Below, one piece after another: positions 1,616-57,831 of a stretch of DNA of 64,000 bases (positions are counted from its first letter, which is position 1; every line of letters starts with the position of its first letter). The position numbers and the translations under genes were made by a program. Origin of the DNA: Candidatus Dadabacteria bacterium (lineage in GTDB: Bacteria; Desulfobacterota_D; UBA1144; Nemesobacterales; Nemesobacteraceae). Where the stretch lies: contig OX638332.1 of assembly GCA_951812735.1 (NCBI GenBank), positions 18,508-82,507 on the forward strand. Reading direction: 5' to 3'. A model generated the notes under the pieces. The model did not search any database and was not told the origin of the DNA. It saw only the letters and a list, made by a program, of their open reading frames with translations.

Positions 1616-1674
1616 TTTAATAGCAGATGATAGCGGGCGAACTAGAGCAGTATCCGTAAATTCTTTTAAACTTT

Positions 1675-3211
<1,537 letters not shown>

Positions 3212-3290
3212 TTCACGGAGATATCTGTCTTTTTTTCGCTCGCCATCTGCTTTTTATAAAAAAGTATTTTTGCTGCGCTTAAACGCAACG

Positions 3291-3367
<77 letters not shown>

Positions 3368-3371
3368 TCCA

Positions 3372-3444
3372 GGGGGTGTAGCTCAGTTGGGAGAGCGCCT
3401 GCTTTGCAAGCAGGAGGTCGACGGTTCGAGCCCGTTCACCTCCA
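3372..3444 (+). tRNA. tRNA-Ala (anticodon UGC). It has the G3:U70 identity pair, and CCA is not encoded.
   Basis: GGGGGTGTAGCTCAGTTGGGAGAGCGCCTGCTTTGCAAGCAGGAGGTCGACGGTTCGAGCCCGTTCACCTCCA. The acceptor stem pairs GGGGGTG with CACCTCC, with a G3-T70 wobble. Confidence 0.95.
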
Positions 3445-3472
3445 TTAAAAAAAGAATTTCTGAATGCTTTTT

Positions 3473-3485
3473 TGATCTTTGACAA
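3473..3485 (+). promoter_or_regulatory. Spacer boxA-like element (TGATCTTTGACAA).
   Basis: Second copy of the boxA-like motif, between tRNA-Ala and 23S, as in enterobacterial rrn operons. Confidence 0.5.
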
Positions 3486-3535
3486 TTGAATATAACGCTG
3501 AGAAACAGAATTGATCGTGTTGTTAGTATTATCGA
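3485..3535 (+). other. 5' half of the long 23S precursor processing stem (RNase III-type). It pairs with 6510-6559.
   Basis: AATTGAATATAACGCTGAGAAA (3485-3506) is the near-perfect reverse complement of TTTCTCAGCGTTATATTCAGTT (6538-6559). The adjacent GTGTTGTTAGTATTATCGAG also pairs with CTCGATAGCAACACAACAC. Confidence 0.6.
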
Positions 3536-3551
3536 GGATTTTCATGCCTCG

Positions 3552-6500
<2,949 letters not shown>

Positions 6501-11652: not shown

Positions 11653-14184
11653 TTACCAGGTGTCGTCTGGTACCTTTTCGAGGTTTGTTTTTATTACCCG
11701 AAGAAAATTCATTCCCATTATTTTCTCCACGATCCCAGCGGGATATCCTTTACCGAGAAGATACTCAGAGAGTGCGGGAAGTTCGGATATGTGCCTCATC
11801 TCCTCGGGGAAATCTTTTATGGGTGCCCCGTCCATGTCGGTTCCCACTCCCACGTGATCTTCGCCGCAGACGCTTATAATGTGGTCTATATGGGCGTATA
11901 TATCCTCCAGGGTGGCCAAACCTTCTGCCTGCCTTAGAAATTTTCCGTAGAAAACGACCCCGATCACCCCGCCTCTTTCGGAAATGGCGCGAAGCTGCTC
12001 GTCACGAAGATTTCGGGGGTGGTCCACAAGGGCTCTTGAATTCGAGTGGGTCGCGATGGGTATGAGCTCGGTGAGTTCCACGCTTTCCCAGAAACATTTT
12101 TCGTTCAGGTGGGAGAGATCAAGCGTGATGCCCAGGGCGTTCATCTGCCGTAGAAGCTCCTTTCCCTGCGAGGAGAGTCCCTTTTTGCTTTCGGGCCCGG
12201 ACGCGTAGATGTTCCTGTTGTTCCAGGAGAGTCCGACCGCCCGAACACCTCTTTTTTGGTATTCGAGAAGATGTTCCGGGTTCGATACGGGGTCCGCTCC
12301 CTCCATGAGAGTGAAAAACCCGATTTTCTCCCCTTCGCTCAGCGTGTCTATGTCCCTTCTGTGTTTTATCTGAAAGACGCTTTCTGAGTGCTCCCGGTAT
12401 ATGTCATCGTATACGTCAAGCTGGGCCATGGCCTCCGCTACTGATCCCCCGGGTTTATGCTTTGGGTGAATGAAGATGGTATTGAAAACGACCCTTGCCC
12501 CGCTCTGTTTGAGGCCGGGCAGGGTTATCATGCAGGGAACCTCGGGATTCTCAAAATCCCTTTTGTAGTGGCGTATGTGAAAGGCTATGTCCTGGTGGGC
12601 GTCGATGGTGAAAAAAGTTGTCGAGGCAGGAGTTCCCCATCCTCCTCCTCCCGGAGTCTCGATCTTCACAGCTTCTCCGGCCTTTACAGAAATAGAGCAT
12701 TTCGCGGGCAGTTTTTTCTCTTCTCCACCCGACACAAGAGTGTTCTGCCCGCTCTTTCCGTCTTTTCCTCCCCGGGCTCCCCAGGGCCGTTTCTCCCTTC
12801 TCTCGGTTATAAGGGAAACATGGGAGTCCTCAAGGAACCTGTACTGTCTTACGATTCCATCCCCGCCCGGGAACCTGCCTTCTCCTCCGGACCCCTTTCT
12901 TACGGAGTACGATTCCACCATTACGGGTAGTTCCCTCTCGATCGCCTCAACCGGGGTATTAAGCGTGTTTGTCATGTGCGTGTGCACGGCGTTTGCTCCT
13001 TTTGCGTCTGAGCGCCCTCCCATTCCGCCGGCTATGGTTTCGTAGTAGGCGTAGGAGGAGTCAGGAGGGGTATTCTCCGGAGAACCGAACGCCAGATTGC
13101 TCATTGTTCCAGCGCTTGCCGCCTGTATAGTTTCCGGGATTGCCTGTGCGAGCGCTCCGAACACCACGTCAACTACCCTCTGGGACGTCTCGACGTTCCC
13201 GCCGACAACCGCGCTTGGGTATCGGGCGTTCAGAATGGAGTCCTCATCGACTTTGATTTCAATGGGCCTGAGCGTCCCAGAGTTAAGGGGCGTGTCTTCG
13301 CCCGAGAGGCACTGAAAACAGTAAAGAACCGCGGAGGTAGTCACGCTCAGGGGAGTGTTAAGACATCCCCTGACCTTTTTAGAACTTCCCCTGAAATCCA
13401 CGGTTGCGCCGCCCCCGTCTATTTTTATTCTTACCTTTATGGGTATGTCCCTTGTTCCCGCTCCGTCGTCTTCAAGATAGTCGGAGAAGACGTAATCGCC
13501 GTCCGGTATTTTCCCTATGGCTTTTTTCATAAGCCTCTCCCCGTAGTCAAGAAGCGCTGAAGCCGCAAGGTTTATTTTCTCTAGAGAATGCTTTTCAAGA
13601 AGTTCGCGCATCCTTTTCTCCCCGGTGTCAAGCGAGGCTATCTGCGCCCGAAGGTCCCCCTCTCTTTCCTCATGATCCCTGGTTGAGAGAATTATTTCCT
13701 GTAGCAGGGTCTCACGCAGAACTCCCTCTTCACGTATCCGCGTCGGAGGTATTATAATCCCCTCTTCGTGTATCGTTGTTGAAAGCGGCATGGATCCGGG
13801 GGTGGTGCCTCCTATGTCAGCGTGGTGGGCGCGCGAGGCGAGCAGAAACTCGGGGTTGCCGTCAACGAACACTGGCGCTATGCACGTTACGTCCGGCAGA
13901 TGCGTTCCGCCGCGAAACGGATCGTTAAGAATGAAAATGTCTCCCGGGGAGAGGTTCTCCGTCGCTACCGATCTCGCGGCAAACGACATTGATCCTAGGT
14001 GTATGGGTATATGGGCAGCTTGGGCGATCATATCCCCGTCTGAGTTGAATATGGCGCAGGAGAGGTCCCTTCTTTCCTTTATGTTCGGAGAGAATCCGGC
14101 TCTTATCAGGACCGAGCCCATCTCCTCGGCGATTGTTCCGAGAAGGTTGTTGAAAATCTCGAGTTCAAAGAGTTTGAGTTCCAT
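11653..14184 (-). CDS. Fusion protein. N-terminal hydantoinase B/5-oxoprolinase B-subunit domain (HyuB, aa 1 to about 522). C-terminal M19 membrane/renal dipeptidase domain (aa about 523 to 843).
   Basis: HyuB hallmarks: FSPNIKERRDLSCAIF, HIPIHLGSM, GGGGWG. M19 hallmarks: TIDAHQD, DLSH, ATHSNSRAL, GVGTDMDG. It is a single uninterrupted ORF in the track. Confidence 0.8.
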   Translation of the reverse strand: MELKLFELEIFNNLLGTIAEEMGSVLIRAGFSPNIKERRDLSCAIFNSDGDMIAQAAHIPIHLGSMSFAARSVATENLSPGDIFILNDPFRGGTHLPDVTCIAPVFVDGNPEFLLASRAHHADIGGTTPGSMPLSTTIHEEGIIIPPTRIREEGVLRETLLQEIILSTRDHEEREGDLRAQIASLDTGEKRMRELLEKHSLEKINLAASALLDYGERLMKKAIGKIPDGDYVFSDYLEDDGAGTRDIPIKVRIKIDGGGATVDFRGSSKKVRGCLNTPLSVTTSAVLYCFQCLSGEDTPLNSGTLRPIEIKVDEDSILNARYPSAVVGGNVETSQRVVDVVFGALAQAIPETIQAASAGTMSNLAFGSPENTPPDSSYAYYETIAGGMGGRSDAKGANAVHTHMTNTLNTPVEAIERELPVMVESYSVRKGSGGEGRFPGGDGIVRQYRFLEDSHVSLITERREKRPWGARGGKDGKSGQNTLVSGGEEKKLPAKCSISVKAGEAVKIETPGGGGWGTPASTTFFTIDAHQDIAFHIRHYKRDFENPEVPCMITLPGLKQSGARVVFNTIFIHPKHKPGGSVAEAMAQLDVYDDIYREHSESVFQIKHRRDIDTLSEGEKIGFFTLMEGADPVSNPEHLLEYQKRGVRAVGLSWNNRNIYASGPESKKGLSSQGKELLRQMNALGITLDLSHLNEKCFWESVELTELIPIATHSNSRALVDHPRNLRDEQLRAISERGGVIGVVFYGKFLRQAEGLATLEDIYAHIDHIISVCGEDHVGVGTDMDGAPIKDFPEEMRHISELPALSEYLLGKGYPAGIVEKIMGMNFLRVIKTNLEKVPDDTW

Positions 14185-28740: not shown

Positions 28741-29421
28741 TTGACTTGCTGGGGCTATACCGGGGCCGAAGGTCCTGATAACTGGGGATTGCTCTCGCCG
28801 GATTATGCGACCTGCGCTATCGGACGCATGCAGTCACCGATTGACATCACCGGTGCCTTTCCCGTCAAGGGACCAGCACTGAAATTTGATTACAAGCCCT
28901 CTTCTCTGAAGATTTTAAACAGCGGACATACCCTCCAGGTAAATTACGCACCCGGCAGCACACTGACTGCAGCAGGTGAAATTTACGAACTGTTGCAGTT
29001 TCATTTTCACGTTCCGAGCGAACACGCTTTTGATGGTTTGCACACGGCGATGGAGGCACATTTCGTACACAAAAATCCAGCGGGCGTACTCGTGGTGGTT
29101 GGTGTTATGATGGAAATAGGCACACAAAACCATGCTTTGGCTGCAGTATTTGACAACGTACCAACCGAGGCAGGAATAGAAGTTGGTGTTGCGGGCACGA
29201 CAGTGGATGCATCTGCGATACTGCCGACGGCGACCACCGGCTACTTCCATTACAAGGGCTCACTCACCACTCCTCCCTGCAGTGAGGGAGTACACTGGTT
29301 CATTTTTCCGGACGCAATTGAGGTGAGTGCAGAACAGGTTGCAAACTTTGAGCGGATGTTCGGACACAATGCACGTCCGTTACAAAAGCGCAACGACCGT
29401 CTGCTGATTGTATCTTCGTAG
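28741..29421 (+). CDS. Alpha-class carbonic anhydrase with no N-terminal signal peptide. TTG start.
   Basis: WGYTGAEGPDNWG, QSPIDI, QFHFHVPSEH, GSLTTPPCSEGVHW. No signal peptide is available in frame. Third-codon positions are A/T-rich relative to neighbours. Confidence 0.75.
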   Translation: MTCWGYTGAEGPDNWGLLSPDYATCAIGRMQSPIDITGAFPVKGPALKFDYKPSSLKILNSGHTLQVNYAPGSTLTAAGEIYELLQFHFHVPSEHAFDGLHTAMEAHFVHKNPAGVLVVVGVMMEIGTQNHALAAVFDNVPTEAGIEVGVAGTTVDASAILPTATTGYFHYKGSLTTPPCSEGVHWFIFPDAIEVSAEQVANFERMFGHNARPLQKRNDRLLIVSS

Positions 29422-53691: not shown

Positions 53692-53765
53692 CGTCCCCGG
53701 CAGGATTCGAACCTGCGGCCTCAGGATTAGGAATCCTGCGCTCTATCCAACTGAGCTACGGGGAC
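53692..53765 (-). tRNA. tRNA-Arg (anticodon CCU). CCA is not encoded.
   Basis: The reverse complement GTCCCCGTAGCTCAGTTGGATAGAGCGCAGGATTCCTAATCCTGAGGCCGCAGGTTCGAATCCTGCCGGGGACG folds into a cloverleaf. Anticodon loop is TTCCTAA. Confidence 0.9.
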
Positions 53766-54620: not shown

Positions 54621-54768
54621 GGGGCTGATTCTAAGGCATAAATACCTCTTTTTGAAACCCGATAACGCTTTAAATCTTTCGCAAATTAAAAAGGAAGGCG
54701 GCATTTCTTCATGAATCCGGTTAGATAAATAGTGCTCTTAAATTTATTTAACAGGAGGAAACACCGCC

Positions 54769-55980
54769 ATGAGAGATTATACAGCGAAGAGCCCCAAAAA
54801 GGTAATTCAGATTAACCACGAGGAGCTTAGGGATCATCTAAGCTCCATAGTCACCGATACGGTAGAGGAAGTATTGAACAAGGTTCTTGACTCTGAAGCA
54901 GATGAGATGGTTGGGGCAGCGCGGTACGAGCGAAATTCGGATCGCCAGGACTATCGTTGCGGAAGCTACACAAGAAAGCTCCAGACCAAAACGGGGGAAG
55001 TTGAGCTTAAGGTACCCAAGCTTCGGGAGCAGAGATTCCAGACCGCTATAATAGAGCGGTACAGGCGAAGGGAGTCATCGGTGGAAGAAGCTCTGGTGGA
55101 GATGTACCTTGCGGGGGTATCCACGCGGCGGGTGGCGGATATTACAGAAGCACTTTGGGACACGCGGGTGAGTTCGGCCACGGTATCGAAGCTCAACTGT
55201 AGCGTGTACGAGCACATAGAGAAGTGGAGAAACAGGCCCATAGAGGGAGAGTTTCCCTATGTTTATCTTGACGGGGTGAGTCTCAAGCGCAGCTGGGGAG
55301 GAGAAGTGGGCAACGTATCGGTTCTTATAGCCATAGGGGTGGGCAGAGATGGTTATCGCAGGGTTCTGGGGGTTGTGGAGGGGGCGAAAGAGGACAAGGC
55401 CGGGTGGAGCGGGTTTCTGCGTCATCTTAATCAGAGGGGGCTTTGCGGGGTGCGGATGTTCATAAGCGACGCGTGTTTGGGGTTGGTTGAGAGCATAGGG
55501 GATTTTTACCCGGAGGCGCTTTGGCAGCGGTGCGTGGTTCACTTCTACAGAAACGTGTTCAGTCACGTGCCTCGGGGGAGAGTCAGGGAGGTGAGTCTGA
55601 TGTTAAAGGCCATACATGCTTCAGAGAGCAAGGAGGTCGCGAGGGCAAAAGCAAGGGAAGTTATAAAGAAGCTGAAAGAGATGCGACTGGGCTCGGCGGC
55701 TAAGTGGGTAGAGGAGAATATTGAACAGACTCTTGGTTACTACGGGTTTCCGTCTTCTCACTGGCGCAGGACCCGAACGAACAATCCGATGGAGAGGATC
55801 ATAAAGGAGATAAGGAGAAGATCCCGGGTGGTGGGGGCTTTCCCTGACGGGCAGAGCGCGTTGATGTTGTGTGCGGCGAGGTTAAGGCATATATCGGGGA
55901 CCAAGTGGGGAAGCAGGAGGTATCTGGACATGGATTTGCTGAGGGAAATGTACAGCAAGGAGAAAATTGAGGTAGGGTAA
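54769..55980 (+). CDS. IS256-family (mutator-type) transposase, apparently intact.
   Basis: ...YVYLDGVSLKRSWGG...VLIAIGVGRDGYRRVLG...FISDACLGL...QRCVVHFYRN... DDE motif, 403 aa. Confidence 0.9.
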   Translation: MRDYTAKSPKKVIQINHEELRDHLSSIVTDTVEEVLNKVLDSEADEMVGAARYERNSDRQDYRCGSYTRKLQTKTGEVELKVPKLREQRFQTAIIERYRRRESSVEEALVEMYLAGVSTRRVADITEALWDTRVSSATVSKLNCSVYEHIEKWRNRPIEGEFPYVYLDGVSLKRSWGGEVGNVSVLIAIGVGRDGYRRVLGVVEGAKEDKAGWSGFLRHLNQRGLCGVRMFISDACLGLVESIGDFYPEALWQRCVVHFYRNVFSHVPRGRVREVSLMLKAIHASESKEVARAKAREVIKKLKEMRLGSAAKWVEENIEQTLGYYGFPSSHWRRTRTNNPMERIIKEIRRRSRVVGAFPDGQSALMLCAARLRHISGTKWGSRRYLDMDLLREMYSKEKIEVG

Positions 55981-55992
55981 TTGAACAACCGG

Positions 55993-56032
55993 AGTTCAGG
56001 AACAAAGACTCATGAGTCTTTGTTCCTGAAAC
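55993..56032. repeat. Perfect 40-bp palindrome (20+20, no loop) inside the IS right end, 13 bp after the transposase stop.
   Basis: AGTTCAGGAACAAAGACTCA/TGAGTCTTTGTTCCTGAACT. Confidence 0.7.
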
Positions 56033-56193
56033 TGAAGAAATGCTAAAAACTTAAATTTGCGAAAAATTCCGAACACTACCTGAAACCCCCATGTTTTTAT
56101 TGCATTTCAACTTCAGCTTTGATTTAATAAGGTGACTTTTGGCCGTCATTTGTTATTTAAGTGCGGTAAAAAATTATTGGAGGGGTAATTAGC

Positions 56194-57651
56194 GTGAAGA
56201 TTAAAATACACGGGATTTTCTTAAGTTTGTTTTTTGCACTTGGTGTTAGTTTCTTATTCGGCACCGAAACGTCCGCTCATGAATACAGGGGTTATTCCCA
56301 CAGGTCGGACCTCGATGTAAGTGCGGAAAACGTCGGTATTGGAGATGTAGATTATGCGGATTCCATAGAAAAAATAACTCTTCACATAGCAGAGCACATT
56401 GCCCTGATTCAGGGGGACTCAAGCCTCAGCCGCCCGGAGCAAGCCAAAGAATTGGTGATACTGGCACAACGGACGAGGGAGCGTGGGGTCTTCAATAACG
56501 GCGAGGTCTACTTCATACTTGTAAATCCCGAGGGATATATAGTAAATCACGGGTTGTATTCCGACCTGCATTTCAGCAAGTATCTCCCTTCTTTCGAGTT
56601 TAGAGATGAGAGCGGCATGACGACCGGAACTGTGCAGACACTGCTCGACAGCGAGGGCGAGGACCCGACATGCGTAGATTACCACTATGACGGACAAGAT
56701 AGAAAGGTATGTGCAATGGGTACGGAGGTCTTCTCCGCCGGTGGCCATACAATCATTGTAATGGGTCTTCATCACGCAAAGGATGACTATGATCTAATCG
56801 AGAGAGACAATCCTAACTGCAATGACCCCCTGTTTAGCCTTCCCGTCACTGCAAAGCAGGTCAACGATGAGGAAGACCCGGAAGAGAAGGAAGAACTTCT
56901 CAAGCAATATGTAAAAGCAGTTGCCGAGAAATTCAAAGAACGTCAGGACAGGGTAGCATCGGAACTACTCGAAGATGACCCTGACCTCGTCCGTCTTGCC
57001 ACAGGACTTGTTCAGGACAGCACACCGGAACAGATACAGTCTGCGGGGGAAGAACTCGAAGAAGAATCTGTCCGGATATCTCTCAGGACAACAGGCTGTA
57101 TCGGCAAAGGAGATTACAGCGAGGGTTCTATATATCCTTTCATGCTGGAACCAGTCGAGGGCCTCGCTGTTCTAAACGGACTTGATTTTCATCTCTACGG
57201 AGTAAGCGTCTCGTTAACCGACCCTGACCCGATTCAGTGCGACGGAGCAAATATTCTGGAGGCTTTTCGCAATGTAGTGACAGATGGAAGCGGAGACCTA
57301 GCGGATTTGGCAGTGGGGAATAACGGCTTCGTTACGTATCATTGGGACCACCCCGAGCTTGAGGACAACAACGAGGGATATCTTGAAAAAGACGAAGTCC
57401 CAGGCTTCTCCATAAAGAAAAGCTATATTGAGGTGATAGACGTAACACCACCTGAGTTTTCCGCTCTTGCTCCTCCGTCTTGGCGTATCGTCGGTTCAGG
57501 AATTTATCTCGACGACGCAGAATACTGTAAAGAGGGGGACGAAGGGTGCGCAATTGCCGCAACCGCCAATACGCCTCAAAGCACTTTGCTTAACCTGTTT
57601 TTGATAGCGTCCGTCTTGTTCTCGGCTGTTTTCTTGAGAAAGCATATTTAG
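56194..57651 (+). CDS. Secreted, C-terminally membrane-anchored protein. It has a split Cache_2-like sensor fold interrupted by an acidic insertion of about 200 aa. No output domain.
   Basis: Signal peptide. GEVYFILVNPEGYIVNHG (Cache N-terminal strand motif). GFVTYHWDHP...KKSYIEVI...WRIVGSGIYLDD (Cache_2 C-terminal motif). C-terminal TM plus RKHI. AT-rich. Confidence 0.55.
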   Translation: MKIKIHGIFLSLFFALGVSFLFGTETSAHEYRGYSHRSDLDVSAENVGIGDVDYADSIEKITLHIAEHIALIQGDSSLSRPEQAKELVILAQRTRERGVFNNGEVYFILVNPEGYIVNHGLYSDLHFSKYLPSFEFRDESGMTTGTVQTLLDSEGEDPTCVDYHYDGQDRKVCAMGTEVFSAGGHTIIVMGLHHAKDDYDLIERDNPNCNDPLFSLPVTAKQVNDEEDPEEKEELLKQYVKAVAEKFKERQDRVASELLEDDPDLVRLATGLVQDSTPEQIQSAGEELEEESVRISLRTTGCIGKGDYSEGSIYPFMLEPVEGLAVLNGLDFHLYGVSVSLTDPDPIQCDGANILEAFRNVVTDGSGDLADLAVGNNGFVTYHWDHPELEDNNEGYLEKDEVPGFSIKKSYIEVIDVTPPEFSALAPPSWRIVGSGIYLDDAEYCKEGDEGCAIAATANTPQSTLLNLFLIASVLFSAVFLRKHI

Positions 57652-57831
57652 ACAGAGCAGGCGAAACGAAGGAACTGGGAATTCTCTCCCGGCTGGATAT
57701 ACCCCTCCCCGAATTTTCCCTTGACAACACATCGGTTTTTGCTAGAATTAAAAAGAAATTTAGACAAGGCTAAAATAATTTTTTGCCTGTATGAATCTTA
57801 GGCGATCTTTTTGGAGATTAGAGAGGAAAAA

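Follow-up and report, generated by a model that had tools for sequence, protein, structure and literature searches.

A tandem sCache_2-like protein family of Candidatus Dadabacteria with a C-terminal tail resembling Cys-containing sorting signals

The gene and its locus

We analysed a gene at positions 56194..57651 (+) of a 64,000-nucleotide stretch of Candidatus Dadabacteria DNA (contig OX638332.1), the whole of which is referred to here as the window. The gene is a complete open reading frame (ORF), stop codon included, that starts with GTG and encodes a protein of 485 amino acids, predicted to consist of two Cache-like modules followed by a short tail that recurs on otherwise unrelated secreted proteins. 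A ribosome-binding site, GGAGGGG (56179..56185, +), is located 8 nt 5' of the GTG and is kept in the orthologue at a related locus, L001. Searches with the Pfam and NCBIfam models detected no output domain in the 485-residue protein, as had been stated in the original prediction, which was made from the letters of this DNA. The ORF, the signal peptide, the motifs quoted there and a C-terminal hydrophobic helix followed by RKHI were likewise found to be present.

The first 28 residues (56194..56277, +) read as a Sec-type signal peptide, with MKIK at the N-terminus, a hydrophobic core and a cleavage-type site between TSA and HEY. The signal peptide has no Cys and hence no lipobox, and it is unusually conserved across the family (column identity 0.67–0.69). 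Together with a C-terminal transmembrane (TM) helix that has a basic end, it flanks both modules, an arrangement that reads as an extracytoplasmic placement. The whole ectodomain is acidic (isoelectric point 4.35, 19.6% Asp plus Glu). A histidine-brace or other metal site built on an N-terminal His of the mature protein (ASA followed by His) was considered and set aside, as the His is found at +1 in some subgroups only and at +2 in others.

An IS256-family insertion sequence (IS) lies directly upstream, outside the gene, at 54660..56075 (+; the ends are approximate), where the original prediction had placed one. Its transposase (54769-55980) is matched by PF00872 (E 3.7e-107) and NF033543 (E 1.1e-102). 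The element has terminal inverted repeats at 54673-54690 and 56051-56068, and the right one ends about 125 bp 5' of the start codon. A perfect, loopless 18+18-nt palindrome (TTCAGGAACAAAGACTCA/TGAGTCTTTGTTCCTGAA) occurs at 55995-56030, just past the transposase stop and inside the right end of the element. To the right of the IS256 end is a conserved promoter-proximal region (56080..56193, +) that is a near base-for-base match to the uninterrupted spacer of L001 (alignment A3); no sigma-70 consensus was called in this region.

The order of genes in five related loci is AddA/UvrD, GT2, (tRNA), glutaminyl cyclase (-), the Cache-like gene (+), MntR/DtxR, ZnuA/TroA, ABC, ABC-3 and ABC-3. These syntenic loci (L001/L008, L010, L012 and L013) represent four distinct genomes, L001 and L008 being on the same contig. 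IS256 is absent from all five. Both flanks of the element align to the uninterrupted L001 spacer, and about 115 bp 5' of the start codon are conserved. Because the relatives keep the synteny without the element and its flanks match the intact spacer, the gene is resident in the chromosome and independent of IS256, which is a recent insertion. The suggestion that the gene is mobile cargo of the element therefore does not hold. Nor is the gene AT-rich, as had been thought: its G+C content (0.48–0.50) is the same as that of the window, and values of 0.42–0.44 are confined to the upstream spacer (~55750-56500). The corresponding spacer of L010 (6780-10000) contains an IS1595-type transposase (309 amino acids) and a lipoprotein of 304 amino acids with a HEIMH metalloprotease-like motif, neither of which is found in L001. 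With IS256 in the window and an IS1595-type element in L010, the spacer between the glutaminyl cyclase and Cache-like genes is an insertion hot spot.

The downstream MntR/DtxR gene is preceded by a sigma-70-like promoter, TTGACA-16-TAGAAT (57721..57748, +; 11 of 12 positions), and is therefore a separate transcription unit. The possibility had been raised that a signalling partner was split off downstream by a sequencing error. However, the next gene is this regulator with its own promoter, and the position of the stop codon of the Cache-like gene is kept in more than 100 homologues. A link to the adjacent Mn/Zn operon (MntR-TroABCD-like) was considered and found weak, as this neighbourhood is restricted to the close clade and the regulator has its own promoter. 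More distant family members occupy a different context, also conserved, with a nucleoside deoxyribosyltransferase/BioB-BioA-BioF block on one side and Aldedh/ECH genes on the other, and in some cases they occur there as tandem paralogues. No kinase, chemoreceptor (MCP), cyclase (GGDEF) or sorting enzyme was found in either conserved context or in the 64-kb window, and the adjacent histidine kinase or chemoreceptor that had been suggested as something to look for near homologues was found in none of the contexts examined.

A divergent family with two Cache-like modules

A search of a collection of 5.8 billion proteins (E<=1e-3) yielded 123 homologues of 313–511 amino acids (most 430–511), mostly with 99–100% coverage of the query. 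Those that are named are hypothetical proteins from metagenome-assembled genomes (MAGs) of Candidatus Dadabacteria, and eight related loci among GTDB species representatives belong to MAGs titled Candidatus Dadabacteria or Thermodesulfobacteriota. None of the 123 homologues has a precomputed Pfam domain, and no Pfam or NCBIfam model recognises the family.

The full-length AlphaFold2 model (predicted local distance difference test, pLDDT, 87.4; predicted template modelling score, pTM, 0.82) contains two modules, each made of N-terminal helices followed by a PAS-like sheet. The N-terminal module (amino acids ~50-200; 56341..56793, +) has two helices and the sheet, and when residues 30-215 are modelled alone the pLDDT is 92.6. 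Foldseek comparison of this module with the PDB places the solved sCache_2 chemoreceptor sensors first: 4EXO/2QHK from V. parahaemolyticus, 4K08 (Adeh_3718), 5G4Y (PscD) and 3UB6-9 (H. pylori TlpB), with probability 1.0 and TMt of 0.45–0.54. With the whole protein as query, these sensors again come first (probability 1.0, TMt about 0.5), and they are the closest structures for each module. A profile of the N-terminal module gave nothing meaningful against PDB sequences, and the fold of this module is assigned by structural comparison alone.

The C-terminal module (amino acids 222-441; 56857..57516, +) is supported by the AlphaFold2 model and also by its sequence profile. It consists of long acidic helices (229-304) and strands at 316-319, 324-328, 377-384, 406-416 and 430-439. 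The top four matches of its profile among PDB sequences are 4K08, 5G4Y, 2QHK and 4EXO (E 0.017–0.3), with alignments that are colinear over beta1–beta3 and the GSGxY strand. Distant family members match the sCache_2 region of the MctS kinase (E 7e-7). The opening strands of the two modules also align with each other (hhalign E 2.9e-5), and we propose that the tandem arose by internal duplication. Both modules thus combine N-terminal helices and a PAS-like sheet with solved sCache_2 domains as their closest structures. The protein is, as modelled, a tandem of two complete sCache_2-like modules that are too divergent for membership in the Pfam families.

Conservation is spread over both modules. 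In the family alignment (A1) the invariant positions of the N-terminal module are Y106, H119, C160, Y163, C173 and H194, with R170 nearly invariant. Those of the C-terminal module are C302, Y314, F316, Y382, W384, P403, G404, K408, Y411, G434-S435-G436 and Y438. The linker between them (amino acids 201-221; 56794..56856, +) carries the invariant C209. The invariant Cys residues in A1 are thus four (160, 173, 209 and 302), and on this ground the modules are probably stapled by disulfides. We propose the pairs C160-C173 and C209-C302, of which the latter is suggested purely by the invariance of the two residues.

Several observations weigh against the Cache assignment. The dCache_2 model (PF08269) scores 13.7 bits against a gathering cutoff of 26.5 (E 0.034) in a sub-threshold match to amino acids 368-388, and 0 of 75 family members pass the Pfam Cache thresholds. 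TM-scores to the solved sCache_2 domains are about 0.5, with root-mean-square deviations of 5–6 A. The only Pfam family with weak matches in as many as 20 of the 75 members is dCache_2 (best E 2.7e-4, none at the gathering score), and sCache_2 itself (PF17200) is matched in one (E 0.075). The Cache_2-like fold named in the original prediction is accordingly supported by structure and not by Pfam score.

In that prediction, one Cache domain was interrupted by about 200 amino acids of low-complexity acidic sequence, and mobile cargo next to IS256 was among the roles suggested. The order of the motifs, the acidic runs at amino acids 226-235 and 286-292 and the adjacency of IS256 fit this view. 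However, the structure prediction, which had been proposed as a check of a split against a double Cache, yielded two modules, both complete and both with helices and opening strands of their own. The motif GEVYFILVNPEGYIVNHG (amino acids 103-120) opens module 1, and GSIYPFMLEPVEGLAVLNG forms the opening strands of module 2, which is closed by the canonical Cache_2 motif GFVTYHWDHP...KKSYIEVI...WRIVGSGIYLDD (amino acids 378-441). The opening and closing motifs taken for one domain therefore belong to different modules. The intervening region (residues 121-320) is folded, with pLDDT mostly above 90, and consists of the rest of module 1, the linker and the long N-terminal helices of module 2; only amino acids 222-300 are markedly acidic (29% Asp plus Glu). 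The element, for its part, is not found at the corresponding loci of relatives and breaks up a spacer that is otherwise conserved, and the gene does not differ from the window in base composition. A split Cache carried as cargo is already refuted by these results, and we give it practically no weight.

Candidate ligand-binding positions were examined by comparison with PscD, where the ligand carboxylate is held by Tyr90, His103, Tyr143 and Lys156 and sandwiched by Trp92 and Trp145 (PMC5062169). Mapped by sequence alignment, these contacts correspond to Y314, F316, N328 (the His position), Y382, W384 and K408 in the C-terminal module and to Y106, H119, Y163 and R170 in the N-terminal module. 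On this mapping, the putative pocket residues of both modules would resemble those of monocarboxylate-binding sCache_2 sensors, which suggests small anionic ligands. It counts against this suggestion that Asn replaces His103 of the carboxylate tetrad in the C-terminal module, and that the mapping was made by alignment and not from superposed coordinates.

The gene is under selection at the protein level. The ratio of nonsynonymous to synonymous substitution rates (dN/dS) is 0.31–0.32 against the orthologues in L010 and L001, compared with 0.03–0.10 for the adjacent transporter genes, and it is therefore a protein-coding gene under purifying, comparatively relaxed selection. In the near-conspecific L010 (10001-11398) the protein is 81% identical, and most neighbours are 92–99% identical. 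Its dN in this comparison is 0.104 versus 0.004–0.039 for the neighbours, and its dS (0.33) is as high as that of GT2 and higher than that of every other neighbour. Divergence of this kind is typical of an exposed protein but may also reflect allelic exchange; it hints at allelic replacement or at diversifying pressure on a surface protein. Broken orthologues or paralogues occur in MAGs assembled from long reads (L012 10363-11448, L013 10772-11446 and L003 11959-13147), as frameshifts or pseudogenes. A second tandem paralogue in L003 is split into pieces of 118 and 264 amino acids.

A C-terminal tail shared with unrelated proteins

The last 39 residues (amino acids 447-485; 57532..57648, +) have the appearance of a sorting signal. 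They read EGDE-GCAIA-ATANTPQ-STLLNLFLIASVLFSAVFL-RKHI, that is, an EGDE linker, the motif G451-C452-A-I-A, a spacer, a TM helix and a basic end, and the protein terminates four residues past the helix. The hydrophobic TM segment (amino acids 463-481, STLLNLFLIASVLFSAVFL; 57580..57636, +) is 19 residues long, has a mean Kyte-Doolittle value of 2.42 and falls within a helix in the AlphaFold2 model (462-484). Column identity over amino acids 451-485 is 0.72–0.89, making this the most conserved segment of the family, compared with 0.25–0.65 for the folded part. The tail consensus is DDDD-G-C-A-I-A-x-T-x-x-T-x-Q-S-A-LLNLFLIASVLFSVVFL-R-K/R-R. Cys452 (codon 57547..57549, +) is invariant in the tail alignment A2 (C6) and is present in at least 90% of A1.

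We searched the 39-residue tail profile (A2) against 1.84 billion representative proteins (E<=1e-3). The profile matches 118 proteins. Nearly all of these matches are at the extreme C-terminus and stop no more than a few residues short of the end of the protein. The matches include family members, fragments and proteins of unrelated architecture. Among the unrelated carriers are plant-type leucine-rich repeat (LRR) proteins (P0194, P0199 and P0223), Calx-beta/PKD proteins (P0191, P0202 and P0225), a repeat protein (P0213) and a protein in which an FN3 array is followed by one Cache-like module (P0224). The tail Cys is present in these unrelated proteins as well. A single circular Dadabacteria contig of 1.92 Mb encodes a family member (P0090), a fused doublet with two tails (P0121) and a tail-bearing LRR protein (P0253).

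Some of the tail carriers and their neighbours have features of their own (L015/L017 10001-13072 and 18816-20025; L005 10001-13054). The Dadabacteria loci include eukaryote-like proteins, namely tail-bearing plant-type LRR arrays and an SRCR-domain protein. The tail-bearing Calx-beta/PKD protein P0225 sits within a cluster for an F-type conjugative type IV secretion system (TraL/E/K/V/C/U/N/F/H/G). The genome of L017 (22728-23072, -) and L015 (22708-23057, -) additionally encodes a protein of 365-388 amino acids, cut by the locus end, in which Pfam recognises sCache_2/dCache_2.

A Cys-containing class of C-terminal sorting signals has been defined by Haft 2023 (bioRxiv 10.1101/2023.06.07.544157), and experiments have demonstrated that the CPBP protease MrtX cleaves MYXO-CTERM in a Cys-dependent manner (PMC11980579). 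The tail described here is short and tripartite, has an invariant Cys, follows a flexible linker and is reused on unrelated signal-peptide proteins, and it therefore has the attributes by which a C-terminal sorting domain is recognised. Like members of the Cys-containing class, it is found at the extreme C-terminus of otherwise unrelated secreted proteins, several per genome. It shares with them a tripartite tail of about 35–39 amino acids, with a motif around an invariant Cys, a TM helix and an Arg/Lys cluster. It differs in that a single Cys is set in G-C-[AS]-[IV]-A and followed by a spacer of about ten residues (T-x-Q-S), in an Asn in the helix (LLNLFL), in the lack of a DP, GP or Pro signature, in its Dadabacteria lineage and in that no NCBIfam model matches it. 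Judged from these sequence features, the tail appears to be a modular signal for sorting that falls in the Cys-containing MYXO-CTERM class, and not a plain anchor. The single hydrophobic helix plus RKHI of the original prediction is thus real as a helix, but is better seen as the TM and basic part of such a tail.

Several results weigh against this interpretation. Isolated tails have no NCBIfam match even at E<=10 (MYXO-, JDVT-, Synerg-, CGP-, GlyGly- and PEP-CTERM, including TIGR03901), and none of ten tail-bearing proteins matches an NCBIfam sorting signal at E<=1. A crude scan for EExxxR/FxxxH/HxxxN, which is a weak test, found no CPBP protease in ~400 kb of Dadabacteria DNA (the window plus 17 loci). 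There is likewise no sorting-enzyme candidate in the gene neighbourhoods of tail-bearing proteins (L005 and L014-L017). Finally, the fused doublets P0121 and P0122 hold the tail internally, followed by another signal-like TM segment, an arrangement that fits a stable TM helix too.

The fused doublets are proteins of about 866–894 amino acids (P0121, at L016 10001-12676, P0122, P0124, P0158 and P0172). A single ORF encodes a signal peptide, two Cache-like modules and the tail, then a basic loop, and then a signal-like TM segment, two further Cache-like modules and a second tail. They are not an assembly artefact, because they recur in many independent assemblies (the P0122 cluster has 19 members).

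The internal tails bear on an alternative in which the protein is a permanent type-I membrane co-sensor. Once the signal peptide was cleaved, the C-terminal helix would remain as a stable anchor, and its strongly conserved face would dock on the membrane-spanning part of a kinase, chemoreceptor or cyclase encoded by a separate gene, much as YycH/YycI bind WalK. The ligand occupancy of the Cache modules would be relayed through this contact. Besides the doublets, which retain the tail as an internal TM segment, this alternative draws on a topology that mimics the sensor part of kinases and chemoreceptors and on conservation of the TM helix far beyond the need of a passive anchor. A WalK-YycH model is among the Foldseek matches, but its TM-score is very low (0.15–0.18). 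However, the same tail, Cys motif included, is carried by LRR, Calx-beta, FN3 and PKD proteins that are not sensory, and signalling genes are missing both from the immediate surroundings of the gene in its conserved contexts and from the window. Docking through the TM helix would also leave the invariant Cys and the acidic/Gly linker unexplained. We therefore consider a co-sensor unlikely, and favour a sorting signal.

A route to the cell surface and its precedents

Our preferred reading, to which we assign a probability of roughly 60%, is that the protein is a Sec-exported, Dadabacteria-specific ligand binder with tandem sCache_2-like modules, surface-displayed and C-terminally processed, rather than a receptor. 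The cleavable Sec signal peptide would direct transport across the inner membrane and then be removed, and the two Cache-like modules would fold in the periplasm. The slot that a second TM helix (TM2) and a cytoplasmic transmitter take up in sensors would be filled by the tripartite sorting signal, whose TM helix and basic end would retain the protein transiently in the inner membrane. By analogy with MYXO-, JDVT- and Synerg-CTERM, the GC motif would be recognised by an intramembrane protease dedicated to sorting, with the CPBP/myxosortase type as the likeliest candidate. If the analogy extends further, the Cys may be modified and the TM and basic part cut off, which would leave the ectodomain anchored in the periplasm or envelope or at the cell surface. 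The anchored ectodomain may then serve as a non-transducing binder of a small ligand, possibly of carboxylates.

The enzyme could instead be of the rhombosortase (GlyGly-CTERM-like) or exosortase type, with the rest of the model the same. The GlyGly-CTERM/rhombosortase system (for example V. cholerae VesB) is likewise a many-to-one C-terminal tag with a Gly-rich motif, a TM helix and basic residues that leads to surface retention. Weaker tail matches have runs of Gly directly before the Cys (GGGGGC, SGGGAC), and the passenger domains resemble those of both rhombosortase- and myxosortase-dependent proteins (SVAGG GlyGly-CTERM; M36 families). However, GlyGly-CTERM has no invariant Cys and its enzyme is a rhomboid protease, whereas the CPBP-processed class is characterised by just such a Cys. 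The GlyGly-CTERM and PEP-CTERM models fail to match the Dadabacteria tail, and there is no PEP motif. An enzyme of either type seems improbable, even more so than a co-sensor.

It is tempting to suggest, though we do so tentatively, that Dadabacteria have a Cys-type sorting system of their own that has not been described. Such a system ('GCAIA-CTERM') would be the fifth of the MYXO/JDVT/Synerg/CGP class, with the tandem sCache_2 protein as its most widespread and best conserved cargo. If true, a bacterial Cache ectodomain would be displayed at the surface by a lipid-type anchor and not wired to a transmitter, analogous to GPI-anchored alpha2-delta (GPI, glycosylphosphatidylinositol). Eukaryote-like LRR and Calx-beta proteins would be displayed through this system as well, in bacteria that are largely sponge- and marine-associated.

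The sCache_2 chemoreceptor sensors, which are also the best sequence matches of the C-terminal module, share with the protein an extracytoplasmic location. The C-terminal module keeps their signature, with Y-x-[WF] in beta1, Y-x-W in beta3, K in beta4 and G-S-G-x-Y-x-D-D in beta5. Unlike these sensors, the protein has two modules in tandem with scores below the Pfam cutoffs, no TM2-HAMP-MCP or kinase output, Asn for His103 in the C-terminal module and Arg for Lys156 in the N-terminal module, and four invariant Cys residues that suggest disulfides. A dCache_2 domain has been described as a duplication of sCache_2 (PMC4822843). However, dCache_2 proteins have one shared stalk and output domains, whereas here each module has its own N-terminal helices.

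Among extracellular sensor modules, Cache domains form the largest class, and they are catalogued as signalling inputs, with one noted exception. This cataloguing arises partly because the models were trained on proteins with output domains. In eukaryotes, a C-terminal lipid (GPI) anchor, added once a C-terminal signal has been cleaved, tethers alpha2-delta to the membrane. The noted exception is SMP_2, a member of the Cache superfamily without a signalling output (PMC4822843). Both set a precedent for Cache-type ectodomains without a fused transmitter, but they are unrelated in sequence to the family described here, belong to other Cache subtypes (DUF2222-like or dCache_1) and are anchored by other chemistry.

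The family adds a conserved architecture in which a putative surface-sorting tag takes the place of the transmitter, and it points to non-transducing uses of Cache domains such as capture, recognition and co-reception. The pairing of a tandem sCache_2-like family that Pfam and NCBIfam do not cover with a Cys-type sorting signal that appears to be an undescribed Dadabacteria variant is new. As a seemingly unrecognised lineage-specific variant, the tail offers a handle on the surface proteome of an uncultivated phylum, including its eukaryote-like LRR proteins. It also corrects an annotation trap, in that a 'TM anchor' at the extreme C-terminus is better interpreted as a probable sorting signal when it is accompanied by a conserved Cys motif.

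The remainder of the window is core chromosome, with an rRNA operon and genes for SecDF, GyrB, Nuo subunits, AddAB and RND efflux. The rRNA operon (1673-6500) is complete and consists of the 16S (1673-3211) and 23S (3553-6500) genes separated by two tRNA genes (3291-3444), and a lone tRNA gene (53692-53765, -) lies between the GT2 and glutaminyl cyclase genes. An ORF of 843 amino acids (11653-14184, -) encodes an unusual fusion of Hydantoinase_B/oxoprolinase (E 4.9e-200) to a Peptidase_M19 membrane dipeptidase (E 1.3e-80). A eukaryotic-type (alpha) carbonic anhydrase (28741-29421, +; PF00194, E 4.9e-40) is encoded between gyrB and the nuo genes.

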